Made by a program: the position numbers and the translations under genes. A DNA stretch of 63,101 nt, counting the filler, from Vannella sp. (lineage: Eukaryota), in the NCBI GenBank assembly GCA_023345925.1. It is 7 parts of 7 records of this genome, joined end to end, with 100 filler letters (N's around TTAATTAATTAA, not from the genome) between each part and the next. Parts side by side here need not be neighbours in the genome. Positions count along the whole stretch, not along the records: positions 28,394 to 36,278 come from JAJQQN010001458.1; 6 more parts are not named here. One strand, 5' to 3'. This document shows positions 4,572 to 57,371 of the stretch, in pieces. The notes beneath the pieces are model-generated. The model saw only the letters and a list, made by a program, of their open reading frames with translations. It made no database searches and had not been told where the DNA came from. Positions within the stretch are counted from its first letter, which is position 1, and each line of letters opens with the position of its first letter.

Positions 4572-4972
4572 TGGCATTGTCTCCTTCCACGGGAATCAGG
4601 ACAGCACAGACGAGGAGTGGCCGTCATTTTTCCTCACCGCACCCAGCAGGATGAAAAGCGCCCGCAGTTGAGGTGAATGGATGGGTCTGAATCAACACCA
4701 GACATCCCTCCGGCCCCTGGCGGGCCGGACCGCCATCTGATGAGATCTCTTGCATAAAGATTGAACAGGTTCCTCCTTGTTGATCAAGCAGACACCTCCT
4801 CGAGCCTGAAAGCCCCAAGTACAGGGAGAGGACCCCAAAGTACTCCAAAGGGCACCCGTTGGGGGACTTAATCTCCCTCTGACTTGGGAAGGATGGTGAT
4901 TCCCAGGAACATGTTATAACTAGGAATGCTCCTAATTCTACGCGGGAAATCATTTTTGGGCATTCCTTGGGG

Positions 4973-7900
4973 ATGGACGTGACCCTGACTTCGGCGGAGG
5001 GCCTCCAGACGTTCCAGAATCGCTTTGGGGAAGAGGTTACTGTTGGGGAAGTCTTGTTTTGGTTGCAGTACAAGGCAGGCTTGGCCAGTGAGAGGCCTCT
5101 CCTTGTAGATGAGGAAGGGACACCGATCGCCCTTTCAGAGCGAGCCAGTCCTGTGATGTACTACACATCATCCCAAGGCCTTGCAACCAGTGCTTCCACT
5201 GCTCGGGTCTTCCCTAAGCAGATGGAGATTGCTCAGGAGCTCTTTAACACAGCCAAATGGATCCTTGAGCAGGAGAGCGGAGTTCCCATCTCAGAACAGT
5301 TCGACGGCATTGAGTACGTGGTGTGCGTACCTTCTATGAAGAACCTAGTATCTCAAACAAAGGTTCGCATGAGAGACTTGAACTTGGAACCCAACGTACT
5401 CATGTATATGATGAACGGAAGCCACCTACAGAAGATGAAGACTCTGCATTGCCGCATCAAGCACAGTCCACGCACACTCTTTATCATGGTGGCAGATGAG
5501 TGTCATTGGGGTATTGGTTTACCAGAAAGCCAAACGGACAGGGACGGAGCCGCACATATGTTCTTGAACCCTCCAGAGTTATGCGAATGCTCTAATTTCC
5601 TGATTCTGGGAGTCAGTGCGACCCCTTACAACGTTCTGACAAAAACTTCGCGACTTCCGTTCCTGTTTGAGCTCCAAGAAGACTACCTCCAAGCCTCATT
5701 GTCGAAAGGAGACCTATTCAGAGTGCTAGAAAGAGGGAATATTTGGAGAGGGCGCGTGGAAGGACAAACTAGGGAAGTAGAGTTACCTCCAGAGTTTCTT
5801 TTGAAGCAAAAACACAAACACATCGTCTCTTGGGTAAGGAATGTCACCCGAGAGAATGGACTTTTGGACCATCAGATGGACGAAGCACCTTATCTACGAA
5901 TTGAATACTTCCTTCGCTCTATCAACACCCCAACACCTAAGATACGGATGGACGCCGATTTTGAGCGCTTGGCAGACGATTTGAACGAGTCCCTGAGCAA
6001 TGGATCGTATCAGGATCTTATAATAGCAGAGTATGTCTTAGCAGTGCTCTTTGCTGGCTTCATTTACTTTGGTGAAGACCCAAAATCCTTTTGGACAGAG
6101 GTTAAGCAGATTGCAAAGTGGGAAGTTCCTGGAGAGTTTCTCCTTCAAATGAAAAAGACTGGGGACAATGCCGATTATCTGGCCCGAATTCAGCGCCATG
6201 CTGACTTGATTGTAAATGACTGGATTGCGAAAACGAAACTCTCTGGAGCTCAAGCCGGCCAGGAAATAGATGATGCCTCCATCCGTGCTAGAATCATTCA
6301 AGAGAAGAGGGCTGGGCGTGGAGATTGCTATACGACAGCAGACAGAGCCCTTCGAAGAATAGTATATTTGAGGGAAGCTGTTGCTATCCGCATTAGTCCC
6401 AAAGAGGATGCCTTTGCTCTATCCAACATGCTCCAAATAGCCAGGGAGCGTTGTCAGCACTCTTTAGAAACCAAATTTGCGATTGTTTGCAACACTGCAC
6501 AGCGAAAGCTGATCGATTCATCCGAATTCTTACTGCAGCCTCTGGTGTCCGATGCAAAGCGCAAAATGAACGAACGCAACAACCGTAAAAGAGCGAAAGT
6601 GAGCGCGGTTCTCACCCTTGAGCAGTTGGATGTACCATGCTTGCTCATTCTTATTAATATTGGGAAAATGGGAGACACCTTCCCTTGCAACTTTCGGATG
6701 TTTGATCTTCGGGCTATGTATCGCTCTAGAAAAACCAAACCAGCTTTATCAACGTTTATTCAATCCTTGGGACGCATGTGCAAGTATCTGAAGGAAGATG
6801 ATTGCCCTTCTGCCTTTCTGAGTGAGCCTCTTTACAATTCTGTTAAAGAAGCCGTCACAATTCGACAGAGTGACCCAGACAAACAGCTCACTCTACAGCT
6901 TCCTTTTTTTATTGATGGCAAGATAAGCACTCATGACAAGGCTTCTCAGACGTATGAGAGACATGGAGGATTCACAGGGGTGGTGGACGCAACTGAAAAA
7001 TCGTATGACTTTGAGAATTCAATAAGCCATTGTCGCCGTATGATTCTACAAGCCGAGCCGCAAGTGGGAAAGACAACTGCATTCTTATGGTTCCTTAAGC
7101 TCCTCCAAAAGCACTTAGGAAGTCCAAGCGAGGAGTGCATTAGCCCCGAAGAGTCAGAAGCGCATGAGAATCTACCCGGTCGCCTGACTGCCATTCCATA
7201 CTGGAATGACCTTGTCAGGATTCCACCTTCTTCCAGTAGCATCACTCCTCTGTCCAAACTAACAAAAATATACAGACAACGTCTCAAGTGGCTCACCCAA
7301 GCAGGTAACACCAAAGACTGGCTTTCACAGTACCTTCAGCTTGTTCGAGGAGTAGCCAATTCACAAATGGATATCGGAGAGGATGTACTATCCCCAAGCC
7401 TCCGGGCAAAGTTGGATAGACTTCTGGTTAACTGGGGAGATTTAACAAATCCTACAGTGGAGCCGGATTACCCAGAGCTTGCCTGGCGACTGGCCAATTG
7501 GGATGGACGCCTTGATAGAGTCAAAAAGGAAGTTCAGATAGACCAAACAAAAGCTTCCCCACCAGAGAGCAACAAGACTATTGGTTGGGTTAATTTCCTT
7601 CCTCCGATTTCCAGCAAAGCCCTTTCAGTCCGGTCTGCTACTGCAGTTGCAAGCTCTCTTTCTTCTGTCTCCATGAAAACACTCCGCTTGGATCTCACAG
7701 CCATCTCCCGTCAAAACGAATTTGGAGTCCATCTTCAAAGGTCTCATGCACGCCTTTCTGTACCAGATGTAACTCAGTTCCAAGGAGTTAGATCGCTTAA
7801 TGACCTATTTGTCTTCTCTCCATCTGAGGCTAATCGAATTATAGGTTGCAATCCAGCGCATTTAGAACAGTTAAACGTGAACAGAAAAGATTTTTGGATC

Positions 7901-9592
7901 TTTTCGCCCTCTTACAGTGGCACTAATGCCCGTGAACCCAGACTTGACTTCTTCCCAAACATTCCGCATGGACAGCGCCCCATTCATGTTGTTGTTGTGC
8001 GATCTGAAGAGTTCCAAACGTACCAAACGCTCTGGGGCACCCAAAAACTTATCTTGGAGTTGCCAAATCAACTGACAGTCCATGGGCGAGTTATTTCTCC
8101 TCTGATTGGAAAGACAGGTTATGCTCGCTTCTTTATCCAGCTGACTGCCTTCATCTTAAAGCTGCCATCTATCTGGATGGTGGATGACAACATTCTATAC
8201 ACTATCCGCCAGTTCCCAGGAGAAGAGCCTTTCCCATGTCCAATTCGGGAGCCTATGGCATTTATTGAGTCCTTGTTGAGTCCGATACCCGAAGACACTT
8301 GGCAGGAAATGAGAAAGCAAGTTGTCAAGTTGCCTGCTCTGCCCAAGGGAGGAATCTTTGGGGCATTTGGTAATGACACATTTGAGAAGCCTTCTTCATT
8401 TGACTATAGTGGAGATCCGTTTCAAGACTACGCTGCTATTGGCCTTGCAAGAAACACAATGGCATCGTTGAAGCATTGCCGTTATTCCCCCTGGCAATCC
8501 ACTTCCAACTTCTCTTCCTTCATGCTATTGAATGTTGGTGCTATTCCTTTGGGGATAAGGTATCCTTTCAAGGATATCTGGGAGGAGGAAGACTTTCTTT
8601 GGCATTGCCACGAGAAAAAGGAAAGCCCTCTCCGACAATTAGCTGTTGTCCAATGTGGGCTGTTCCATTTCAGCAAAGTGGGAGGAATAGAGATTGTTCC
8701 ACGGACACAAAACGGTCTTCTTCGATGGCATCACAATCTCACGTTCTCTGAGCATGAATGTTCCATCCATGCCAAGCACATTTCTCTCTTCCATCAGTGG
8801 AAGAACGCCCGTGGGATTACAAAAGTTACCGCCACTGACACAACTTCAATCCCAGAAGAAGTCTTCAAACTCGTTACGAAGAACTCTGATCCAACCATGG
8901 CCAAGTGGGCCAAGTTAGTCAAGTTAGCACCCTGTTTGTCCGTTTCTTGGACAAAAGAGGAATTGAGAGACTTGGCCAATGTAGAGCTTTCGCAGATTTA
9001 TGTGTTTGCTGACCTGGGAGCAGCACCTTCTTCAGGACATGCCTTGGAGCTTGTGGAAGGCCAAATCATTCGGCCACTCTTTGCTGGGTTAAGTCGTCCT
9101 ATCAAATCATTTGCAGTGGAAAGTGCGCATTTGTTGGCTGATAATGATCTCTCCATCAATTGCCGGGGCCCCACCTTTTGGCATCGCCTTGCATTAATCA
9201 CTGTCACTTTACGGAAACCTCCTCGCACAGAATCTTCACAAGAGGCAACTCCGAAAGTAGTGGGAGATAGGACACCATCTCCATCAGATGATCATACCTT
9301 CCCAACAGTAGATGAACTACGCCGTTATGGTAAACCAGTGCCACTAACAAAGGATGATTTAAAGAATCTTCCGGAATTCAACGAGTCACCAACTCGCCAG
9401 TACATCAAAGACCGGAGACTCTACGCGGTGTATAAGAGCCAAGTATTTCTTGTTATCAGAAGGCACAGCAAAGAGGCTCTCCAAGTCGAATCCCCCGGCA
9501 ATAAGATATCCTATCCTTCTCCAGGGAAAACGGACCTTTTCCATTTCACAGGAGCCAAGTCCATCCCCTTCGAACTCGACAGAAAGGACTAA
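4973..9592 (+). CDS. GREB1-like protein: circularly permuted SF2 helicase plus C-terminal TAGT/GT-A glycosyltransferase, intronless
   Basis: Motif Ia VCVPSMKNLVSQT, II DECH (5495), III SATP (5615), V GKMGDTFP and VI QSLGR (6761) all precede Walker A AEPQVGKT (7052). The C-terminal part has FSPSY, HVVVVRSEEFQTYQTLW, GYARFFI, IWMVDDN (8171) and EEEDF, as in GREB1/JGT-like glycosyltransferases. Confidence 0.8.
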   Translation: MDVTLTSAEGLQTFQNRFGEEVTVGEVLFWLQYKAGLASERPLLVDEEGTPIALSERASPVMYYTSSQGLATSASTARVFPKQMEIAQELFNTAKWILEQESGVPISEQFDGIEYVVCVPSMKNLVSQTKVRMRDLNLEPNVLMYMMNGSHLQKMKTLHCRIKHSPRTLFIMVADECHWGIGLPESQTDRDGAAHMFLNPPELCECSNFLILGVSATPYNVLTKTSRLPFLFELQEDYLQASLSKGDLFRVLERGNIWRGRVEGQTREVELPPEFLLKQKHKHIVSWVRNVTRENGLLDHQMDEAPYLRIEYFLRSINTPTPKIRMDADFERLADDLNESLSNGSYQDLIIAEYVLAVLFAGFIYFGEDPKSFWTEVKQIAKWEVPGEFLLQMKKTGDNADYLARIQRHADLIVNDWIAKTKLSGAQAGQEIDDASIRARIIQEKRAGRGDCYTTADRALRRIVYLREAVAIRISPKEDAFALSNMLQIARERCQHSLETKFAIVCNTAQRKLIDSSEFLLQPLVSDAKRKMNERNNRKRAKVSAVLTLEQLDVPCLLILINIGKMGDTFPCNFRMFDLRAMYRSRKTKPALSTFIQSLGRMCKYLKEDDCPSAFLSEPLYNSVKEAVTIRQSDPDKQLTLQLPFFIDGKISTHDKASQTYERHGGFTGVVDATEKSYDFENSISHCRRMILQAEPQVGKTTAFLWFLKLLQKHLGSPSEECISPEESEAHENLPGRLTAIPYWNDLVRIPPSSSSITPLSKLTKIYRQRLKWLTQAGNTKDWLSQYLQLVRGVANSQMDIGEDVLSPSLRAKLDRLLVNWGDLTNPTVEPDYPELAWRLANWDGRLDRVKKEVQIDQTKASPPESNKTIGWVNFLPPISSKALSVRSATAVASSLSSVSMKTLRLDLTAISRQNEFGVHLQRSHARLSVPDVTQFQGVRSLNDLFVFSPSEANRIIGCNPAHLEQLNVNRKDFWIFSPSYSGTNAREPRLDFFPNIPHGQRPIHVVVVRSEEFQTYQTLWGTQKLILELPNQLTVHGRVISPLIGKTGYARFFIQLTAFILKLPSIWMVDDNILYTIRQFPGEEPFPCPIREPMAFIESLLSPIPEDTWQEMRKQVVKLPALPKGGIFGAFGNDTFEKPSSFDYSGDPFQDYAAIGLARNTMASLKHCRYSPWQSTSNFSSFMLLNVGAIPLGIRYPFKDIWEEEDFLWHCHEKKESPLRQLAVVQCGLFHFSKVGGIEIVPRTQNGLLRWHHNLTFSEHECSIHAKHISLFHQWKNARGITKVTATDTTSIPEEVFKLVTKNSDPTMAKWAKLVKLAPCLSVSWTKEELRDLANVELSQIYVFADLGAAPSSGHALELVEGQIIRPLFAGLSRPIKSFAVESAHLLADNDLSINCRGPTFWHRLALITVTLRKPPRTESSQEATPKVVGDRTPSPSDDHTFPTVDELRRYGKPVPLTKDDLKNLPEFNESPTRQYIKDRRLYAVYKSQVFLVIRRHSKEALQVESPGNKISYPSPGKTDLFHFTGAKSIPFELDRKD

Positions 9593-12041: not shown

Positions 12042-12141
12042 NNNNNNNNNNNNNNNNNNNNNNNNNNNNNNNNNNNNNNNNNNNNTTAATTAATTAANNN
12101 NNNNNNNNNNNNNNNNNNNNNNNNNNNNNNNNNNNNNNNNN
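12042..12141. other. Artificial contig linker (N44-TTAATTAATTAA-N44)
   Basis: 100-nt N run with a six-frame stop linker, repeated identically six times in the window. Confidence 0.98.
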
Positions 12142-28393: not shown

Positions 28394-30594
28394 CAGTCCG
28401 TCCACGGAAAGTCCATCTCCACGAGGGAGCGGTTGTGCATGAAGCTGGCCAAGAGCATCTTCCAGCCACTAGGAGAGATGTTGTTCCCGTCACAGCGAAG
28501 ACGAAGCAGTCTGGAGTTGTATCTCAGCATGTCAGCGATAGCCGAAGCAGCCTGGTCGCCCATTAAGTTGTTGCTCACATCCAACTCCAAAAGAGTGTTG
28601 TTTGTGCGGCGCATGTACTTCAAGAAGGGGATTGCAACGCTGCCAAACCCACCAGCTATGCTAATACTCTTCACAGATGCCAAAGAGTTGGCCACAGACA
28701 TGAGCGCGGACGAGACACGCTCCCCCGCATACGTGGACTTGTAACAATTGTCAAGAATAAGTGTGTCCAGGGTCTGAGTGGCGGATAGAACGATAGCCTG
28801 TAAGATTCCAATAAGTCCTCGCTCTTTGAACTTGTTACGGGACAAGTCCAGAGTGTGGCAATTGACATTCAGCGACAAACTCTGAGCTAACGATTCAGTC
28901 TCAGACTCGCTGAATTCGTTGTTGCAGAGTGAAAGGCAAGTATTAGAAAGTCTCTTATTGCCCAGGAAAGCCTGGACAATGGCACCTCCGTGTACTCCGC
29001 CCAAGTTACAGTGAGACACATTCAATCTCTTCAAAGTATTACTTTTCTCTAACATAGAGCACAGCAGCTGCACAGCTCGCTGGTCAAGCTTACTGTAAGA
29101 AAGATCCAAGTCCTGCAAATCACTTAGAAAGTGGAAATAAGCGGCGATTGTCGAGAAGGATTGCCCAGTATTGGCCAATCGAAGAGTTTGGAGCCGTGAA
29201 TACTCTGCTGCCTTTGATAACCACGTTTCCAAGGCGATGCTAGCCTGCTCATCAAAGCGATTGTTGGAGAGGTCCAGCTCTTCAATAGTCAGAGACATTC
29301 CGTAGTTGGCAGTGAGACTTTCTGCAATAGAAGCCAGCTGCCTTCCATCCAGGGCACAATCAGAGAGATTGAGAACCTTCAAGCTGTGTGGGAAGTTCTG
29401 CAACGTAATGCAGAGCACGGAGATGCCTTTGGTAATGTGAGTTCCAGATAGATCGATCATTTGAAGCGCGTGGGACCGATTGTACTGCAGTGCTTCCCCC
29501 AGCTCTGTCACGTTCCCTTCTGAGAGCTGAGATAAGGACACCTTGGTGATGCGACTGTTATAGCGAAGAATGTTGCAAAGGGCGAAGAGAATATCCTTCT
29601 TATAGACTTGTACCGCTGAGATAGCCTTAAAGTAGGTGTTGTAACGCAGTGCAGCAGCGATTGGCTCGATATTGAATGAGAACTCGCCCTTAGGTTCGAT
29701 GCCAGGGCAGTCCTGGAAGCGGAACTCGACCACCCCAGCTTCATGCAAGTCCGTGACGTACCGCATCACTTCGCCAGAGATAGCCTGTTTGTAGAAGGTG
29801 CTAAAGGCTCCGAAAGTGAAGAGAAACCCGTTCGCTGGCCCAAAGGCCGAAGGGTCGCACGGTTCCAAAGGGAGAACACTACAAACAGCAATAAAGAGTG
29901 AGCTAAGGATACCCTCCTTGTAGAGCACACTTACTCTTCTTCTTCTACACCAAACAGGCCAGGTAAACGAGCATTGGGGAAGCCGTACGTGAAGAGACGG
30001 ATGGCCGTGCGAATCTGTCGGATGTACTCTGCTACCAACGGCGTGAAGAGGACAAGCGGAGACTTTTGATAGAACTGGAGCTCCAGCTAGTGCTGTATGA
30101 GTCCAGAGGAACAGGGGAGTGGCAGGGAGGGTCCTAACCTGTCGTTTGTTATTCTTAAAGACTGAAATAGAGCGCAATGCGAGGAGATGGAACTTCTTGG
30201 TGATCTACAGGAGAGAAGTAACGCATGTGAGCCATTGAGAAGGTACAACAGGGTGGGAATAGAGCGGAGAGAGCTACCTTGAGGCGAACGGAGCCTGGGA
30301 AGAGGGTTTTCTTCTTCTTGCCGAGCATAGAAGACTTGATGCGCGCCTGTTTGATGATGAAGATCATATACGACCCAATGACTATGATACGCTTGGACAC
30401 CTTCGTGTTCTCCTTCGTTTCACCCCAACGAGCAAAGACTACTTTGTTTTGGTACTCAGAGACGAGTCTCTCCACGCAGTCTTCTCTTCTGTGAGTACTA
30501 GCGACCTCCCTCCATCCCTCTACTCACGTAATTGACCCTCACTAAGCTCATTGGAGCTGCGAGCGCTCGTCTTCTTCTCCACCCGCAGCGGCAT
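28394..30594 (-). CDS. CARMIL: CARMIL-like PH plus RNI-like LRR protein, multi-exon, 3' truncated
   Basis: N-terminal PH-like KRIIVIGSYMIFII; GPANGF..T...F..FY; PIAAALRYNTYF; many LxxLdLSxN repeats; LDVSNNLMGDQAA. Confidence 0.75.
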
Positions 30595-30614
30595 CGCTCA
30601 GAGCGGCCTCAGAA

Positions 30615-32417
30615 ATGGTTCCCTGGCGAGGTACCTTCTTATTTTCGATGCTGCGTGGGGCTGGCGTGGTCCAGGTGGCGAGGAGGAAGCGTCCCGCAGG
30701 GTTTTGGAGAGAGAAGGAGAAGGCGGCCGCCTTTTTAGAGGCGTTGGCGCAGCGGTGGTGCTTGAAGGCTCCTGAGGATTGGGCAGGAGTTACTACTCGC
30801 TGTGTACTCGAGGAGGGTGGAAGAGGGCTGCTGGCGGAGTACGGTACGCTTCGCAAGGCGTTGGAGGAGCTCCGTCCAGAGGCTGTTTGGGACTACTTTG
30901 CGATGGGCAAGTACCCACACGGTCATTGGGACACCCCTGAACATGTAAGACTCTTCATGGAACGCTTAGCGGCTGAGTATCAGGTGGAATCGCCTCCGGA
31001 TTGGAGAAGAGTGACGTGGTCCCAAGTAGACCTCCACGGAGGAGCTACACTGCGCAAGAGGTTCCCCAACTTTGTAGCTTTATTGAAAGGAGCGTTCCCT
31101 GAACAGACAGAGTGGGAGGAGAGCGTGGTTCGAGAGAAACTGCCGCAAGGCTTTTGGGACCTTCCAGACAATCGGAAGCGCTTCTTGGAGCGTGTACGAG
31201 AGGATATGGCCGTGCGCTGCGCGGATGATTGGCGTAAGGTGTCGACGAAGGATATAGTGGCCATGGGAGGCACTGGAATGCTCTCCAAGTATTCTACTTT
31301 TGAAGAACTCTTGAGAAAGGAGCTTCCCGATGAAGGATGGAGCACTTTTGACACTCGCGACCGCGTTTCTAATGGATATTGGACAGCAGAACGTATCAGA
31401 GAACACGTGGAAAGTGTCAGGACCACACTTAAGGTCAAAGAGCTGGATGATTGGTCTTCCATCTCACTTCTCCAATTTCGGAAAGCCTCTGGCAATCGTT
31501 CTTTCCATAACCAGTTCCCTAACTTTGTGGAGCTGTTGCAGTCTGTTTATCCAGAACACACTTTCGATCCATTTGATTGGCAAAGGCTGCCTAGAGGCTA
31601 CTGGAAGAACATTACTAATCAGCGCCGATTCCTGGAGAGATTCGCTTTTGAGCACAATATCCAGGCTCTCTCCGACTGGCGAAAAGTGTCGTACGCCTTC
31701 CTGGAGAGGAATGGGGGCCGTTCCCTTCTAAGACATTACCCTTCCATGCTTGAGATGTTACAATCAGTCTATCCTGAACACCATTGGGACATATTTGATC
31801 GAGATAACGTCTCGGGAAGATACTGGAAAGATCCCCAAAGACAAGCTGGTCTACTAACCCAGATTGCCGAAAAGTTTTGCATCAAAACTCCAGAGGATTG
31901 GTACCGGGTATCCCTTAAGCAGCTGCAATCTATGAGAGTCGCTTCTTATGTCAAGCGTCATGGTGGCCTTTACCAGATTTTGAAGGAATCCCACCCAGAA
32001 GTCCCTTGGGAGCAATCCAAATTCCAGACTAGAGATAAGCGTTCCACCCAACGCTCCATGTTCTTGGCGCTCCGGGACTTGTTCGAAGGAGAAGAGATTG
32101 TAGAAGACTTCTTTCACGAAGAACTCACAAGAGAGAGCGGCTCTGGCATTCAATTTGACGTTTTTGTTCCTCGACTTCAAGTGGCTTTCGAGTACCAAGG
32201 GGAACACCACTTCCGGGACATTCCTGCTTTTGGCACACTGGAGCTGTTCCAGTCCCGAGACAAGGAAAAGGCCAAGCTATGTGAGAACTTTGGAATTCAC
32301 TTAGTTACAGTGCCGTATTGGTGGGACGGCTCGAAACAGCATTTGAGTGACTTGGCCTCCAAACAGCACTTTAGCATTCTCGAAAAGCAGCTCTTACCAG
32401 ACCGCATTAAAGTGTGA
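30615..32417 (+). CDS. Protein with six ~74-aa helical repeats and a C-terminal PD-(D/E)XK (Vsr/DUF559/RAP-like) nuclease domain, intronless
   Basis: Repeat consensus G(F/Y)W...N.R.FLE......DW..V.......GG..LL..Y......L...(Y)PE..W. C-terminus QFDVFVP...AFEYQGEHHF...RDKEK...C...GI.LV.VPYWW. Confidence 0.8.
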   Translation: MVPWRGTFLFSMLRGAGVVQVARRKRPAGFWREKEKAAAFLEALAQRWCLKAPEDWAGVTTRCVLEEGGRGLLAEYGTLRKALEELRPEAVWDYFAMGKYPHGHWDTPEHVRLFMERLAAEYQVESPPDWRRVTWSQVDLHGGATLRKRFPNFVALLKGAFPEQTEWEESVVREKLPQGFWDLPDNRKRFLERVREDMAVRCADDWRKVSTKDIVAMGGTGMLSKYSTFEELLRKELPDEGWSTFDTRDRVSNGYWTAERIREHVESVRTTLKVKELDDWSSISLLQFRKASGNRSFHNQFPNFVELLQSVYPEHTFDPFDWQRLPRGYWKNITNQRRFLERFAFEHNIQALSDWRKVSYAFLERNGGRSLLRHYPSMLEMLQSVYPEHHWDIFDRDNVSGRYWKDPQRQAGLLTQIAEKFCIKTPEDWYRVSLKQLQSMRVASYVKRHGGLYQILKESHPEVPWEQSKFQTRDKRSTQRSMFLALRDLFEGEEIVEDFFHEELTRESGSGIQFDVFVPRLQVAFEYQGEHHFRDIPAFGTLELFQSRDKEKAKLCENFGIHLVTVPYWWDGSKQHLSDLASKQHFSILEKQLLPDRIKV

Positions 32418-33032
32418 GTTATCAACACGACAGGGAACGGAACTCTTTCTGCACTTGGGGAACGTTGAACATGACATCGAGATCCTTCAAGGAGTCCAGT
32501 TAACGTAAGCCTTGCTCCCGAGAATGTCAGATTGAAGGGGAAAGTATCCATCAGTAAACTCAAACTTTCATGCTGAGCTGGGAGTCGTTGCAGTCATTTG
32601 TTGCAGAGGTTGATGTGAGAGTCTCTTACCAGGGAGCAGCAAGCAGAAGCTATGCGGAAGAGTTGGGTCGTGAGAGAGGTCAAGAACATCAAACATACTG
32701 CCGGATACGACCCGAATAGCTTCCTGCTGGATCACACAAAGACACGAAAGACCAGGAAAGTTCTTGATTGAGAAGAACGACAGAATCCAACCCTCCTCAT
32801 GTGGGTGCTTCCGCCACTTCCTTCAAACAAAATGCGTCTTTCTGTTCAGCTGACAGCTCTTGCACTCCAGACAGCTTCCAACCAGAGATTCTGCACCAGG
32901 TGATAAAGTGGTAATTATTGTCTCATTATTTTGGCAGAAAGTTATCGTTGCCTGAGCAATTGTCAAGTTTCCTATGATATTCAATGTTGAAATTTCAAAG
33001 ACCAGAGAGGTTGCTGGGTCATTCTTCCATTG

Positions 33033-35488
33033 ATGGGTGGGCGTGTGTGGGACGGCGGGACCGGTTGGGAGTTGTCTGTGCTGCAAGCTATTTTGGACGA
33101 GGAACCTGAGAAGCTCAACCAAGTGAGGCCCTGTAGTGAATGAGGCGAGCGGTCCTGATGAAAGGGATCGCTTTTTAGTTTGTGAGTGAAGCAAAGAAAG
33201 CTACCGTGGAGCTGACCAACACCTCGTTTAGCATGTTAGTCCTACCTTTCGGCTTTGTCTAAGAGTGCCAGGCGCGAGGGAGAGCGACATCTGAACGAAA
33301 GCCCTTTAGGAAGTAGGTCAAAAGGGATCCCTGGTTGTTGGACTCACTAAACGGCTACGGCTACAGGAAGTAGGCATCAATCATGATGTAATGTTGTCCA
33401 AGGACCTCACCAAAAGGGCTCTTGATTAGTTTGTAAGGCCTGTCGAGGATAGCCAGGCGTGATGCTCACTCACAGATCATTTAGTCTGTAAGAAGTCTTC
33501 AGCTGTTTGATTTAGGATGAATGTAGACCCTGATAAAATGACGGCAGTGGGGAGTGAGTGACTTTGAGCGGAAGATGCTCTCCAGCAGAAAGGCTCATCA
33601 TTGCATTCTAGATGGTAAGTCACATGCCTCTTTGAAGGGCTGAGGGAACAAACCACATCTTTGGAATACCTTTTTACTCACCAGATTCCTCCAGAGTGTG
33701 AGTAACTGATGATTGAGAGGAAGTGGCTCATTGAATCGGTGATCTAGTCTGTAAGTGGCCCATCTCCAAAGAGGAACGCAGCTGGGACTTTTTAGCAAGG
33801 ACTCACCGCCACATTTGAAGAAAGTATGAGTGAAACTGACAATGGAAAGCTCTTAACAATCTGCTTTTTTAGCGCGTATGCTTTATCGTTCAATGGAGGT
33901 CTGGTGTACTCACCATGTTCATTCATAGTGGGTCAGTCACTTCTTACAACGAAATTGGAAAGCTTAAAGCATTCAGACGTTTCTTGGACTGGCGGCTGCG
34001 AAAGGGAACACTGAATTTATCGAAAATTTGCTTTCCCGTCGAACCATCAACATTCATCGAGGAGTGCGTTCTAATTGAACAGTTCCCTGACACTGATTCT
34101 TTTTTAGTCTGTGAGTACCATTCTCGCAAGCAAGATTTTAGTGGAAACAATGCTCATCAGTAATATCGGTGTAGTATGTAAGAAAATGGATCTGCTAGCT
34201 TGAGGGAAGGTGAACTGCGCCTTACTGTGGCCCAATTCAGGATGTAAGTATTTAAGGGAGAATTTCTAGTTCTCACAAACTTTTAAGTACGTGAGAAGCT
34301 TGTCTGTTGAGGTGATATTTGTGACCTCACTCCGCTGGTCTTGTGTAGGTTGTGAGTAATTCGTCAGAGAATAAGATTTTTTCTAACCTTTGTTCTCCTT
34401 CAGGTGGTGAGTCATTCCATATCTTGCCCAGAGAGCCAGTCCATGATTGGTGTCGGAAATTAGAATGTAGGTAAAACACTAAGAAAATTCGGAGGAGCTT
34501 GCTGGTAACAACAGCTTTCAGCGAGTAAGCAAGTGGAAGGGAAGATTCTGTTGATGCATCTCACCAAAACGGGTCTGCAGACAGTGAGTGATTGGACAGT
34601 TTCGAAAAAACATTCTTACTCTTCCTTACAGTTTGTCAGTATCCGTTTACCGACCATCTTCTGTTCTGATTTTTCTCCCCACAGAGGGTAAGAAACAACT
34701 AGAATGGACTTTGAGGCACTCACTGCCAATAGGGTTCAACTTATCGAGTAAGTCAAAATTTCCCTTTCATTGAATGGATCTGACTGGACAGAGAATAGCA
34801 GCCATTGGAACTGGCGTGTAATCCCAAGATTGAGGAGATGCTGAAGAGGGCAGGAGGCAGGCCTCCTTTCATCCCGCCTCTCGATTACGATCACCTGTTC
34901 AAGCTCAAGATCATCGGAGATCTAGGTTGCGGCAGGGGGTGTGTGATTCGCCGATTTGTAGACGACACTTACACGGAGTCCTACATAATTCGCAAATCAG
35001 AAATTTTTGATAAGACCATTGTGGTGAAGGGTAAGTCTATCAAGCTCCAGATACATCTTGAATCAAACGACGGCGTTGAAAAATTCCGGAACGTCGGTGG
35101 TCCAGGCATCTACTATGAAATCCAGGGCATCATCATCATATATGATGTTACAGATCAGGCTTGTTTCTCGAATGTGAAACAGTGGCTGCAAGAACTCGAT
35201 CGATACGCTCCTGACAATGTCAAGAAGCTGCTTGTCGGAAACAAGTGTGATTTGACCACAAAGCGGGAAGTTGAGTTTGACACCGCAAAACAATTCGCTG
35301 ATGAACACAAAATCCCTTTCTTGGAGACCTCTGCCAAGAATTCAGTCAATGTCGAGGAGGTCTTTTCCTTGCTTGCCACTGATATCTATGAGACGGTCAC
35401 TGAGAAAGAGGCCCCAGTTCCTCAGACTTCAACTGTGGGTGTCTCTCCTGGGAAAAAGCAGGGAAAACAAAAGTGCAGAATGCAGTAG
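33033..35488 (+). CDS. Micro-exon gene: ankyrin module with single-codon micro-exon loops fused to a degenerate Rab1-like GTPase (28 exons, 318 aa if all exons are included)
   Basis: Exon 1 33033-33122; 13 micro-exons 33179-33931; ankyrin exon 33977-34063 (TFLGLAAAKGNTEFIENLL); 12 micro-exons 34108-34747; last exon 34799-35488 (QPLELA...Rab fold, NKCD, ETSAK, CRMQ). All 27 introns are GT-AG, 44-80 nt and phase 0. Confidence 0.88.
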
Positions 35489-35640: not shown

Positions 35641-35830
35641 CTTTTGGCACAATGGAACTTTTCGGTCTCGACAAGGAAAAGGCCAAGCTACTTGGGAGCT
35701 TTAGGATTCACAAAGCTGAATTGCTGTGTTGGAGACGGCTCGAAACTACATGTAAGTGACTTGGTCCCCAAGCAACAACATTGTTGTTGAACTTCCAAAA
35801 GCAGCTCTTACCTGACTGCATAAAAGTGTA
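35641..35830 (+). pseudogene. Decayed duplicate of the 3' end (32227-32417) of the repeat-nuclease gene
   Basis: Collinear shared blocks CTTTTGGCAC, GACAAGGAAAAGGCCAAGCTA, GACGGCTCGAAAC, AGTGACTTGG, AAAAGCAGCTCTTACC and AAAGTGT, with indels. Confidence 0.85.
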
Positions 35831-36047
35831 GCAACAACCTGTTTAGCTTGAGTTTATGATTATCTTCCGGTTTCACAGCATTTGAGGAAGGACTCTATGG
35901 AGTTATCTAGCCATTTCTGGTGAAGGAGTGAGTCTTGAATGATCAAATCGAACGAGAATCTCGATGCAAAGCCAGCCAAGAGATCTCCGAGAGATCTCCG
36001 GCACAAAAAAGTGAAGGAATCTTCCTTCTGTGTGCCAAGAGGCTTCG

Positions 36048-36278: not shown

Positions 36279-36378
36279 NNNNNNNNNNNNNNNNNNNNNN
36301 NNNNNNNNNNNNNNNNNNNNNNTTAATTAATTAANNNNNNNNNNNNNNNNNNNNNNNNNNNNNNNNNNNNNNNNNNNN
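36279..36378. other. Artificial contig linker
   Basis: N run with TTAATTAATTAA. Confidence 0.98.
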
Positions 36379-36525: not shown

Positions 36526-37026
36526 CTATTCAGACTCCAAACTGAGGGCTCTTGGGAAGACTTTGCCCTTTCTGATGGCCTCCAAGGCTCTTTTGGAATT
36601 GTTTTCTTCAGCTATTTGAGGAGGAGTTTGGCCGTATCCGTTCTTAACGCCGGAAGAGCCATCTCCGTTCTGGAGGAGTTCAAAAATAACTTCAGCGTGG
36701 TCATACTCGGCGGCCCAATGCATTGGCGTGTTACTCTCTGAGTCAAGAGTCACCGTGGCGTTGTGTCTGAGGAGAAACCGCACTACGGAGGGGTCCCCTA
36801 CTTTGCAGGCCCAGTGAAGAGATGACTCCTGAAAGATGTTCCGGGCATTCATGTGGGCACCTTTTCCCACAAGATACCGAACGGTTTCTTCGTTGCCACC
36901 CAGAACAGCGTAGTGTAAGGGCGTTGACTCATAGAGGGAGAGAGAGTTCAGATCGCTTAGGAGTTGATCCAGAGAATCCCTTTGAAAGTGGCCACTGACT
37001 GCCGTGCGGAAGATTGGAGAGTCCAT
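36526..37026 (-). CDS. Small ankyrin-repeat protein (tandem paralog A)
   Basis: STPLHYAVLGG, ESSLHWACKVG, NTPMHWAAEYDH and GQTPPQIA. Confidence 0.88.
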   Translation of the reverse strand: MDSPIFRTAVSGHFQRDSLDQLLSDLNSLSLYESTPLHYAVLGGNEETVRYLVGKGAHMNARNIFQESSLHWACKVGDPSVVRFLLRHNATVTLDSESNTPMHWAAEYDHAEVIFELLQNGDGSSGVKNGYGQTPPQIAEENNSKRALEAIRKGKVFPRALSLESE

Positions 37027-37511
37027 CGGACAGGCAAAGAATAGAATGGTCAGAGTATCGGCGTCTATCAGATCGGGTTCCCAGAATCAATCTTGATTTG
37101 TACTTGTGGGAGCAGGTGAATGTTCCCGAAAGGTCTCCGTTTCGTTTGGAAAAGGAAAGATGATCAACAATCGGACTCCTGCGCGCCCTTTTCTGAATCA
37201 GTTTACGACTGAAGACTTCGCCTGAAGATTGTGATAAAGAATCATTGACAGTCTCTGAGATAACTTGGAAAGGGTCTGAATGTCACCATTAATCACTTCC
37301 GTACATTCCAAAGTTCGCTCCTCCTTGATGATAAAGGATAGAAGGCGAAGAGAATCATTCCCAAGGCAACGCAGAGCAATGAAACTCAGTTTGATCCTGA
37401 TCGATTTGTTTGGGAAGGACTCTCTCGACACCTCTCCTGTAAACTGTTGGTTTTGGTCATGAGAGAAGTACCATCTCAAAAGCATCAGAGAAGAAGTTCA
37501 AAAGAAGAGTT

Positions 37512-38018
37512 TTACTTTTCTGTCTTCCACTTAAAGACTGGAGGGGAGCCTTTCCCCTTCTTGAGAGCAACGAGGGCCTTCTTGGAGTCGTTCCTCTCGG
37601 CTAACCGAAGAGGAGTATGTCCATCCTCGTTCTTGATACGACAAGACGGTCTGCCTCCATTGTGTAAGAGTAAATGAATGACCTCATCATGATCGTACTC
37701 AGCAGCCCAGTGCATTGGCGTGTTTCTTTCGGAGTCCAGAGTAACCGAAGCTTTGTGTTGGAGGAGGAAACGCACCACGTTGGGGTTGCCTTCTTTGCAA
37801 GCCCAGTGCAGAACTGATTCTTGGAAGATGTTCTTTGCGTTCAAGCAAGCGCCTTTCTTCACCAGGTATCGGATGGTCTCCTCATCACCACCCAGAACAG
37901 CGTAATGCAAGGGTGTTGATCCGTAGAGGGAAAGAGAGCCCAAGTCGCGCAAGTGAGAGTCAAGAGATTCCTTCCGAAAGACCCCATCGACTGCAAGACG
38001 GAAGATAGGGCAATCCAT
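37512..38018 (-). CDS. Small ankyrin-repeat protein (tandem paralog B)
   Basis: Closely similar to paralog A: MDCPIFR..., STPLHYAVLGG, NTPMHWAAEYDH. Confidence 0.88.
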   Translation of the reverse strand: MDCPIFRLAVDGVFRKESLDSHLRDLGSLSLYGSTPLHYAVLGGDEETIRYLVKKGACLNAKNIFQESVLHWACKEGNPNVVRFLLQHKASVTLDSERNTPMHWAAEYDHDEVIHLLLHNGGRPSCRIKNEDGHTPLRLAERNDSKKALVALKKGKGSPPVFKWKTEK

Positions 38019-39049
38019 AAGACAGCCAAAGAATGGTCGCAACTTGAATCGATGATCAGAATGGGCGCAATCTCGATCGACTTCGAGTAAGCAACCCAAA
38101 CAAGGTAAGGTCGGACTTGCGGCCGTCCAAAAGAAGGTCTTTCTGCAATGTTCTCCATATGAAGAGGACCAGTTTTTGGTTCATTGATCAAACCAACAGC
38201 GAATCCAACCAACGAAGAGGTAGAGAGAACACTTCTGGGGGCTTCTGAGTCTGGGAACGATAACTTCTGGTTTGGCCTCATCGGTCACCGGTGGTTCATC
38301 CATGTTGAGAGAGGTCTATGAAGTCCAACGCCAAGCCCAAAATGAAAGCATTGAATAGAAGCACTCAATGGGGCTCATGATGGTCGGTTGTCGCATTCCT
38401 GGAGTGTGTGGGAGGCTCTGCCCAAGGAAAGCGACTGCTTCCCACATACCAGCGTCTACGACAGGATTCTCTCCTTCTTATTCCTTGCTGTCCTCTTCTT
38501 CCAGGGGTTCTTCTTCCACTTCGGGGCTCATGTGTGAGCTCATCATGCTGTTGATGCGGTCTACGTCGTCGTCCGCATTGAACTCGATCTCATCGTCATC
38601 TGCTAGCTCCTCCACGAGGTTCCACAATGGTTCGAAACTCAGCGTCTCCCTCCTCCTCTTCCTCCTCTCGGTGCTTGTCTCTCCACAGTCGTTCTTCCTC
38701 CTCCTCTTCTTCCTCCTAAGCGTACTCATCATTGGGCTGGATACTCCTCAGAGTAATCTGGTGTGAACTCTCCATCATCTCCGCTGTCGGCTCGGCTCCT
38801 CTCCCTGCCACCGGAGAAGGGAAAGTCATGGGCCGATAAAATGATCTTGACCAACTCAGGGGTGATAGAAATGATTTACTTTGAAAGTTGGTCACAACTC
38901 CTGAATTTTGTCCTCAGAAACGGAGAAACACCCATCGGGAGACATCTGGGGTTAATAAACATATAAAAAAGTTCACTGGTTAAGGTACTGATCAAATTTA
39001 TAATCGCAGTCAATTTGATTGGCTTCCAGTTCTTGTTTCCCACCTGGCG

Positions 39050-54939: not shown

Positions 54940-56363
54940 TCACCAATAGGGATCGAGTAGTGCCTCGAAATCAGGGGCTACAAACCTGGCATATTCACGG
55001 TTGATATGAACAGAATCTTGGAACTGCTGGATTCCATGAATGACATTCCAGCATGTTCTGTTGGGGCAGATAAACGCGTCCATGTTCAACACAGCATATT
55101 GGTTTTCTTCCCCCGCAGCTGTTAGTTGCTCGCGGGCTTCCCAATATCCGTTTGCTATGGATGCTGGTCCAAAGCAGTCTGGATCGCCGTTCTCTAAGCA
55201 GGGTTCCATTCCAACGCCTACCAAATTGATATGAGGGAGCATGATGACTATTTTCGTTAAAGGAGACACGTTGATGAGAGCTTCCTTGACTCCTTCCCTC
55301 ATTATCTTATTCCATTCGGGAGATAATCGACTGGCCCATGGCCCGTTTGGAACAGAGGCGCTACGGATTTGGCTGTGAGTAGTGAAAGAGAGGCAGAAGA
55401 GGATGATGGACTTGGGAGGGGGCTGGCGATTGATAGCATCCCACAGTCTTTCTTGGTCGAATTCGTTCGTAGGCTCTCCGGCACTCCAATTTGGAATCAG
55501 TTTCATCCAAGGCGTTGAAACTGCCACCAAATGTTCGATCCGTATGGATCTCTTCTTTCTGATTGAGCTAATGACACCGCTTTGTACCCATTCTTGCAGA
55601 TAGGAGTCTCCAAGGAGCAATGAAGGGCCTACCGTTTGGACAGAGGTATCTGACGGAGCACCTCCAGGATGGCCTTCAAGAGTTCCCAGTTGTTCGTTTT
55701 CATCTTCAAACGTGAAGTTTGTTCTCGGAAGGAGTATGAGGATGCTCAGAAACGCGAGAATTGAGATCACAAATCCACAAAAGAGAACCTGGGACGACGG
55801 CAGTCGAAGAGATTTGAGAGGCTTCTCAAGAAGAACATTCGAGATGGCTCCGCAAGCGAAAGTCGCTAAAATCAAGAAGACACCTCGAACCAGATCCATT
55901 TTCGTGTCAAAGGAACGCGTCATTTCGTCCACAAAGATCAGAGGATAGTGCCAAAGGTACATCGAGTAAGAGTACAGTCCAAGCCTTTGAAAAAGGGGAC
56001 CAGAAAGCACTTCTGCAGCAAAAGTCGAAGAGTTGAGCTCGAAGCCGACGATCATTAGGGCCATGCATCCCGTTGCAATCGCCCCTGCTAAAAGTGGCGC
56101 GATTTTGAAAGGGTAAACACTCAAAAGGAGGAAGCACACGAGCCCAGTGTAGGACAAGGTGCTGGAAAGAGCCTCATTTGAGATGAATTGCTTCTTTTCT
56201 GTCCTGGAAAGCTGCCACAACGCCAAGCATGCACCCACTACCAGCTGATAGATACGGAACTGCGTTCCATAATATAACGTGCTCGCAGGAACGCCTTGAG
56301 AGGCGCATGCGAGAGTGAATGCACAGCAAAGCACCAGAAGGCCGATCGCAAAGAGGAACACTC
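54940..56363 (-). CDS. Acyltransferase-3 plus SGNH (OatA/OafA-like) protein, C-terminal half only
   Basis: YYGTQFRIYQL..G, G.YSYSMYLWHYPL, LEKPL; SGNH motifs LLGDSY and DSVH. The 5' half is absent at the junction. Confidence 0.75.
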
Positions 56364-57271
56364 ATTGCTGGTGTATCTGGCGTACAAGCTTGGAGGGAGC
56401 CACCAACGAGTGCTCCTCTTTGCGATCGGCCTTCTGGTGCTTTGCTGCGGGTTCACTCTGGCCTGCGCCTCTGAAGGCGTTCCTGCGAGTACGTTATATT
56501 ATGGAACGCAGTTCCGTATCTATCAGCTGGTAGTGGGCGCCTGCCTGGCGCTGTGGCAGCTTTCCAAATCCGAAAGGGAAGTAAATCGGCAGGGGCCCCA
56601 GCCGGGGCTCGTCTCAAGCGCAATGTCATACACTGGATTGACATCCTTTCTACTTCTCAGCTTGTATCCCAATGAGATCGCGCCTCTGCTGGCCGGAGCG
56701 ATTGCAACGGGATGCATGGCCCTCATGATCGTCGGCTTCGAGCTCAACTCTTCGACCTTTGCTGCAGAAGTGCTTTCTGGTCCCCTTTTCCAAAGGCTTG
56801 GACTGTACTCTTACTCGATGTACCTTTGGCACTATCCTCTGATCTTTGTGGACGAAATGACGCGTCCCTTTGACACGAAAATGGATCTGGTTCGAGGTGT
56901 CTTCTTGATCCAAGCCACGATTGCGTGTGCAGCAGTCACACATGTCGCAATTGAGAAGCCCTTGAAGACGATGAAGATTTCTACGGCATCAGTTCTGGTC
57001 GTTGGGGTGATCATATCACTATTCGTGAGCTCAGGCACTTTCATTCTTCTCTCTGACGCACCAAAGATCGTGATTGAAGAGGACCACGTGATCCTGGACC
57101 CTCCTTCTCATGCTCCTGAGACAATCGATCCTCCCAAAGCGATTGAGATTCTTGATCCTCCCAAAGCTGTTGAGATTCTTGATCCTCCGGCCCAGGCTGT
57201 CGAGGATCATGAAAATCGCGAGACTGTGGAACTTGGACCGACAATGCTGGTAGGAGATTCTTACTTGGAGG
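56364..57271 (+). CDS. Second AT3-SGNH paralog fragment, inverted relative to the first and truncated by the contig end
   Basis: Near-identical AT3 helices; linker with ILDPP(K/A) repeats; ends at LVGDSYLE. Confidence 0.75.
57090..57192 (+). repeat. Coding 27-nt tandem repeat (EILDPPKA-type), about 4 copies
   Basis: GATCCTCCCAAAGC...GAGATTCTT units. Confidence 0.75.
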
Positions 57272-57371
57272 NNNNNNNNNNNNNNNNNNNNNNNNNNNNN
57301 NNNNNNNNNNNNNNNTTAATTAATTAANNNNNNNNNNNNNNNNNNNNNNNNNNNNNNNNNNNNNNNNNNNN
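57272..57371. other. Artificial contig linker
   Basis: N run with TTAATTAATTAA. Confidence 0.98.

Follow-up and report, generated by a model that had tools for sequence, protein, structure and literature searches.

The ankyrin-Rab gene of Vannella sp., on the + strand at 33033..35488 of the 63,101-nucleotide stretch of DNA analysed here (the window, filler included), has a layout that is real, selected and unusual, and that is a variant of micro-exon-based variation. The gene model has 28 exons and an open frame of 319 codons, and its 27 GT..AG introns, which occupy positions 33123 to 34798, are each of 44-80 nt and are all in phase 0 (27/27). Among the 26 internal exons 23 have a length of 3 nt, the remaining three being of 6, 87 and 15 nt. 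Particular to this gene are the 23 single codons lying in two equivalent loops, the evidence from a second haplotype for selection and for swapped codons, and the fusion with a Rab1 that is both degenerate and hypervariable. Our preferred reading of the sequence, to which we assign a probability of roughly 0.55, is that the product would be a binding protein diversified through in-frame skipping of exons and through codon replacement. The features of the gene are as follows.

33033..33122, + strand: exon 1, 30 codons from the ATG (gene model; no Pfam match)
33123..33976, + strand: array 1, introns 1-14, encoding the predicted loop 1 (gene model, chain test)
33179, 33232, 33310, 33367, 33430, 33485, 33612, 33695, 33748, 33821, 33873 and 33929, + strand: starts of the 3-nt exons of array 1
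33548-33553, + strand: 6-nt exon of array 1 (gene model)
33977..34063, + strand: 87-nt framework exon, one predicted ankyrin-like helix pair (PDB sequence search, our own HMM)
34064..34732, + strand: array 2, introns 15-26, encoding the predicted loop 2 (gene model, chain test)
34108, 34175, 34241, 34288, 34349, 34404, 34464, 34522, 34581, 34632 and 34685, + strand: starts of the 3-nt exons of array 2
34733..34747, + strand: 15-nt phase-0 exon, end of the predicted loop 2 (gene model)
34748..34801, + strand: intron 27 with a tandem acceptor, TAG ending at 34798 and CAG ending at 34801 (sequence)
34799..34864, + strand: start of the last exon, a short helix and probable C-terminal ankyrin cap (family alignment; low-confidence model)
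34901..35389, + strand: Rab1-derived G domain (Pfam Ras, PDB, motif comparison)
35474..35488, + strand: C-terminal CxxQ (CaaX-like, predicted prenylation) and stop (family alignment)

Splice signals and their conservation in a second haplotype

The first-pass annotation had described 27 short introns with intact splice signals between 33123 and 34798, all of which are recovered in the gene model, while its picture of a single array in which every internal exon is of 3 nt has had to be revised. The 87-nt exon splits the micro-exons and thus creates two arrays, the first with 12 single codons and one two-codon exon, the second with 11 single codons. All 26 internal exons are multiples of three without a stop, and 25 of them do not exceed 15 nt. 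The donors are of the genome-typical kinds that had been listed (GTGAG in nine introns, GTAAG in nine, GTAGG in three, GTATG and GTCAG in two each, GTTAG and GTGCG in one each), the acceptors are TAG in 15, CAG in 10 and AAG in two, and a YTVAY-like branch motif is found near the acceptor in 21 of the 27 introns, compared with a mean of 8.0 and a maximum of 16 in 2000 sets of shuffled introns. The NAGNAG noticed at the last acceptor (34796-34801) is likewise present and is predicted to add or remove one Gln. The array donors resemble, and are no weaker than, the donors of a reference set of 31 candidate introns of ordinary type from the window, a comparison which is partly circular because the set was picked by motif, some false calls included; unsupervised intron picking as a source of reference introns was dropped as too ambiguous. 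TAG acceptors are found in 15 of the 27 array introns and in 5 of the 31 candidate ordinary ones (p = 0.002), and the TAG-rich acceptors are possibly weaker sites.

Units of the form AG-NNN-GT..G number 24 within 1.71 kb, a density of 14 per kb that compares with 0.67 per kb over both strands of the rest of the window. The longest chains have 13 and 11 units, the window has no other chain of at least three units, and an excess of this kind is absent for units with any other exon length between 1 and 11. In 2000 dinucleotide shuffles, the control on which the first-pass annotation had staked the array, the longest chain has 4 units and the largest number of units is 9. The arrays are also, as had been argued, not a young tandem repeat: TRF gives 0 rows and there are no near-identical units with a fixed period. 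Of the faint shared pieces that had been read as traces of old unit duplication, the similarity of introns 5 and 23, the best pair in the array, stands (28 nt at 75%; z 6.7 among 351 pairs), while that of introns 1 and 4 is weak (z 3.3).

It is hardly credible that the arrays are due to chance or represent a tandem repeat, an assembly artefact or a dead pseudogene. Tandem repeats on viral contigs do mimic such chains, with up to 13 units, and are a trap for AG-NNN-GT pattern scans. A scan of this kind over viral contigs, used only as a warning control, returned 120 loci, and on contigs L074, L083, L125, L147 and others repeats with a period of about 54-60 nt produce 10-13 false units with near-constant triplets. 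These chains are read as tandem repeats because their spacing is fixed and their triplets are near-identical, unlike the Vannella locus, where no tandem repeat is present and the shuffle and window controls are exceeded. Moreover contigs from each of three DNA runs cover 27-30 of the 30 bins of the locus, the frame stays open over all 319 codons, and the splice positions are conserved in the second haplotype.

This second haplotype or close paralogue, the two being indistinguishable here, was met on contigs of the three DNA runs, which belong to one biofilm-metagenome study, over 33412-33792, 34223-34483 and 34566-34713. Differences were taken from 40 of the 99 rows for the three runs together with all 30 rows for one run, and position 34252 was left out since it lay on a reference-like contig. 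A single one of 126 splice positions is changed, and it still yields a common donor, whereas 44 of the 619 positions in intron interiors are changed (one-sided p = 0.002), a result that supports the earlier proposal of selection on the splice signals. Micro-exon bases are changed at 6 of 45 positions (p = 0.14 against introns, with full contig bounds). At the level of codons, 12 of 15 are unchanged and three differ, one silently and two by amino-acid swaps: Met to Ser, through two bases, at 33612-33614 in array 1 and Tyr to Arg, through all three bases, at 34288-34290 in array 2, each swap being carried by one contig only, of depth 5.1 or 3.8. As to an excess of amino-acid change in the micro-exons, which had been proposed as a check, two of the three changed codons are multi-base swaps, a borderline excess over intron triplets (p = 0.049, or 0.024 with tighter bounds) to be read beside the five adjacent multi-base changes that occur in introns, while the excess at the level of single bases is not significant. 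Gain or loss of whole units between alleles, which had also been suggested, was not seen, the order being the same over the 14 micro-exons covered by the second haplotype, and none of the indels among the differences listed is longer than 14 nt or falls outside an intron.

In the framework six differences are listed, three in exon 1, two in the 87-nt exon and the remaining one at the start of the last exon; all are synonymous, and some of them come from paralogues. The last exon is not uniformly constrained, because one contig of depth 3 over the Rab part has four non-synonymous changes and a 3-nt deletion. Three contig ends run along exon 1 and past the first donor before they diverge, and a fourth does likewise after the 87-nt exon, a pattern that suggests paralogues with the same framework junctions. 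A joint of 33703 to 34004 was left unused; it had 27 letters on one side, and that piece has a 70% look-alike elsewhere in the window.

The ordinary appearance of donors and branch motifs, the identical exon order of the second haplotype and the trace similarity of introns 5 and 23 would all fit constitutive inclusion of the micro-exons, in which the arrays would be relics of old duplications of an intron together with its codon. Such duplications would have extended the two loops to lengths of 15 and 20 residues, and variation would arise by codon replacement over evolutionary time only. Constitutive inclusion is a serious but less probable alternative to a splice-diversified binding protein. 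It would require 25 additional, error-prone splicing steps to add 25 residues, which is costly if nothing is gained; the acceptors are TAG-heavy; and strict phase 0, although duplication of codon units would also produce it, is a requirement of safe skipping and not of constitutive use.

The window is eukaryotic and gene-dense with short introns. Its N joins at 12042, 20588, 28294, 36279, 42321 and 57272 each consist of a 12-base spacer with a run of 44 N on either side, and gene order across them is uncertain. The 3' end of the gene upstream of the ankyrin-Rab gene (32259-32419) has a decayed copy just after it (35670-35833), with pieces of 36-63 nt at 78-89% and a spacing of about 3.41 kb, and this position between old direct repeats hints at local duplication. 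An ORF of 623 codons at 30546-32417 (+), for which Pfam gives no match, contains degenerate internal repeats, and its C-terminal tail looks nuclease-like by eye. Further away, 4883-9592 (+) holds an ORF of 1569 codons that no intron interrupts, although the genome otherwise has introns, and in which helicase-like motifs can be made out by eye, and 54940-57327 (-) holds two adjacent similar ORFs, by eye membrane acyltransferase-like with a hydrolase-like tail, a possible duplication of a bacterial-type gene.

The predicted ankyrin-like domain and its two loops

The 60 PDB matches listed for the 87-nt exon, from 140 matched at E up to 10, are without exception ankyrin/DARPin-type or DARPin-complex entries, the best E value of 1e-5 being summed over repeats with no single stretch significant, and in one comparison with an HMM of ten ordinary ankyrin repeats from the window the exon scores E about 1e-4. 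Pfam gives no match for exon 1 or the 87-nt exon. The isolated 30-residue ankyrin-like piece is predicted to fold as one helix, an uninformative result, and the model of the last exon has a helix at residues 9-19, in a part of low confidence. The 87-nt exon is predicted to encode one ankyrin-like helix pair, exon 1 is probably the N-terminal capping helix of the domain, and a C-terminal cap is probably encoded by the first 22 codons of the last exon. With cap-like segments at both ends and the 87-nt exon between them, the arrays would fill both inter-helix loops, and both are predicted to sit exactly between framework helices, at the position of the ankyrin beta-turn and binding face, a placement that the first-pass annotation had missed, as it had the Rab1 fusion. 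In DARPins this beta-turn, which forms the binding face, is randomised or extended, according to the excerpted text of PMC6977956. Two tandem ordinary ankyrin genes at 36529-37086 and 37515-38180 (-), past the N join at 36279, are 74% alike over 300 nt and are free of micro-exon chains.

The residues encoded by the micro-exons are biased, 8 of 25 being F, W, Y or H against a background of 11.9% (p = 0.007) and none of the 25 being L, I, A or P against a background of 26% (p = 0.0009), four groupings having been tried in these tests. With every exon included the loops would be 15 and 20 residues long, and skipping would give ranges of 1-15 and 9-20; if any subset of exons can be skipped, up to 4048 x 1260 distinct loop pairs are available. 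Ordinary ankyrin repeats in the window have seven residues at this spacing (5/5 matches), and the 33-residue period with its seven-residue hairpin spacing does not arise when all exons are in, seven being reachable only by skipping.

Dscam provides the familiar case of a recognition surface varied by combinatorial splicing, where whole half-domains are swapped from mutually exclusive sets; in the ankyrin-Rab gene the unit is a single codon, and exclusivity is a feature of Dscam. A regulated choice, Dscam-like or clone-specific, of one or a few micro-exons per loop would give mature loops near seven residues, and it gains from the facts that a spacing of seven lies within the range of loop 1 and that this loop offers 642 distinct six-residue choices. 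Loop 2 would nevertheless keep at least nine residues unless the 15-nt exon were skipped too, and introns of 44-80 nt leave scant space for docking or selector elements, and we regard such regulation as improbable.

A degenerate Rab1 in the last exon

The last exon matches Pfam Ras with E 7.9e-42 over 34901..35389, its top PDB match is Rab1A, and its predicted fold confirms a G domain. Identity to canonical Rab1 is 58-59%, the best-scoring named single-domain Rab1 match being that of Vannella robusta (59%). This match points to a vannellid amoeba as the likely source, as does an Rps8 cluster at about 75% with a member labelled Vannella. A ciliate label is carried by the best named Rps8 match (84%), where we suspect contamination by an amoeba because the Rab1 of that dataset groups with a Vannella Rab1. 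The domain resembles Rab1/Ypt1 in its Ras fold and in keeping the NKCD and SAK motifs, and differs from it in an altered P-loop (Lys-Ser is replaced and G1 ends in RG), in the loss of the switch-I Thr (G2) and of DTAGQ (G3), in a C-terminal CxxQ and in the N-terminal ankyrin-like fusion. Six relatives, the metagenome proteins P0006, P0045, P0091, P0123, P0248 and P0249, are 42-51% identical to it and share the cap helix and the CxxQ. Within this family of seven the losses in G2 and G3 are universal (7/7), as is the CxxQ, where three aligned canonical Rab1 proteins have CxC or CC, and pairwise likeness falls to 24% over switch I and II, compared with 79% for G4 and 73% for G5. Such features of Ras proteins predict a guanine-binding, non-switching, prenylated domain with a variable effector-facing surface. 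A family of degenerate Rab1 proteins with hypervariable switches and CxxQ is apparently undescribed, and our quick Rab tree, in which long branches meet, gives no firm origin for it.

The database entries of all seven family members start in the would-be last exon and contain that exon alone; such genes are invisible to gene callers. A metagenome scan with an alignment of the family N-termini gave 70 loci, mostly plain Rab genes by match range and none with a chain above 2, and the viral scan gave none. No spliced ankyrin-Rab product was found among the longer proteins searched, which is weak evidence, nor in 17 of 150 representatives and cluster members or in three more. One candidate, P0457, has a longer N-terminus and was rejected, as it is without a part like the 87-nt exon. 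Contig ends of one run resemble P0006 by eye.

If the splice-diversified reading holds, the binding surface would be carried on a predicted membrane-anchored, switch-dead Rab1, and its likely role would be to recognise proteins that are foreign or variable, either in the cytosol or at endomembranes. As a guess, the Rab part might serve as a decoy against intracellular microbes; the literature search found no host protein of this degenerate-Rab1 decoy type, though it covers pathogens that target Rab1.

Skipping, inclusion and known micro-exon systems

The introns of the arrays are probably defined as introns and removed serially, because a 3-nt exon cannot hold both flanking spliceosomes. In the proposed mechanism they would be excised one after another, and wherever a donor paired with a later acceptor single residues would be lost without a frameshift; as all junctions are in phase 0 and none of the micro-exons encodes a stop, whole residues would be dropped by any skip, whereas retention of an intron would in 25 of 27 cases disrupt the frame or introduce a stop. 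Transcripts would then differ in the length and the sequence of the loops. On an evolutionary scale a lone codon between freely drifting introns could in addition be replaced between alleles or paralogues with the framework untouched.

Micro-exons of plants offer a precedent for the order of removal and, at the same time, a caution. In the portion of PMC8831610 drawn on here, the introns flanking small plant micro-exons (1-15 nt) are removed consecutively and not together, and micro-exons flanked by short introns are included in most cases, their splicing is delayed, and intron retention is commoner than skipping, which counts against assuming skipping in the ankyrin-Rab gene and favours constitutive inclusion. 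For one protist, too, exon skipping is given as rarer than intron retention in the extract of PMC4739763. Plant micro-exons are however conserved and lie in fixed motifs, and the same portion of PMC8831610 has no long arrays of single codons such as those of the ankyrin-Rab gene. Introns flanking plant micro-exons are also described there as often detained, which would suit a splicing timer, in which 27 packed introns would delay or throttle maturation of the mRNA and the residues would be incidental; the computation from the gene model that retention of 25 of the 27 introns breaks the frame or adds a stop points the same way. A timer requires neither the placement in two loops, nor biased residues, nor phase 0 throughout, and we think it very unlikely.

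The Drosophila gene sowah has annotated micro-exons, two of 3 nt together with others of 6, 12 and 27 nt (PMC8042270, in the section consulted), and its 3-nt exons again favour constitutive inclusion. Its two single-codon exons lie about 1 kb apart, whereas the ankyrin-Rab gene has 23 at a spacing of about 55 nt. To our knowledge sowah has no Rab fusion. The micro-exon genes (MEGs) of Schistosoma, which the ankyrin-Rab gene would resemble in its working without being one of them, contain short exons in series, most of them multiples of three, make several isoforms per gene, and have been proposed as a source of protein variation; their exons are mostly of 15 bp, their introns of 0.1-5 kb, and their proteins are secreted with a signal peptide (both from the excerpt of PMC10526429). 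The ankyrin-Rab gene shares with them the run of short exons in multiples of three (26/26), but its introns are of 44-80 nt, its arrays consist of single-codon exons limited to two loops of a repeat domain, and its protein ends in a Rab domain with CxxQ; inspection of exon 1 by eye for an N-terminal signal peptide found no hydrophobic stretch. In combining a constant ankyrin framework with a variable beta-turn or extended loop the predicted protein resembles the DARPin and LoopDARPin libraries, as these are presented in the available part of PMC6977956. Those libraries are randomised artificially, whereas here a natural gene has a single full repeat between caps, with variation that we infer. 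In the open literature we found no account of such single-codon arrays in protist ankyrin loops, subscription papers and bioRxiv supplements lying outside the search.

Even if every micro-exon is included constitutively, 23 exons of three bases between minimal introns form a natural substrate for studying how small an exon can be and in what order spliceosomes assemble. More tentatively, and with less confidence than we attach to a diversified binding protein as such, the amoeba may make a natural loop-randomised ankyrin library by combinatorial skipping of single residues, each binder mounted on a hypervariable Rab1 decoy, which would be a form of intracellular anticipatory recognition outside animals. 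If skipping is real, millions of loop sequences that differ by single residues would be within reach of one gene of 2.5 kb on an ankyrin binding face. A unicellular eukaryote would then have, through splicing, a counterpart of an antibody or DARPin library, and the finding would bear on how protists recognise variable intracellular invaders.
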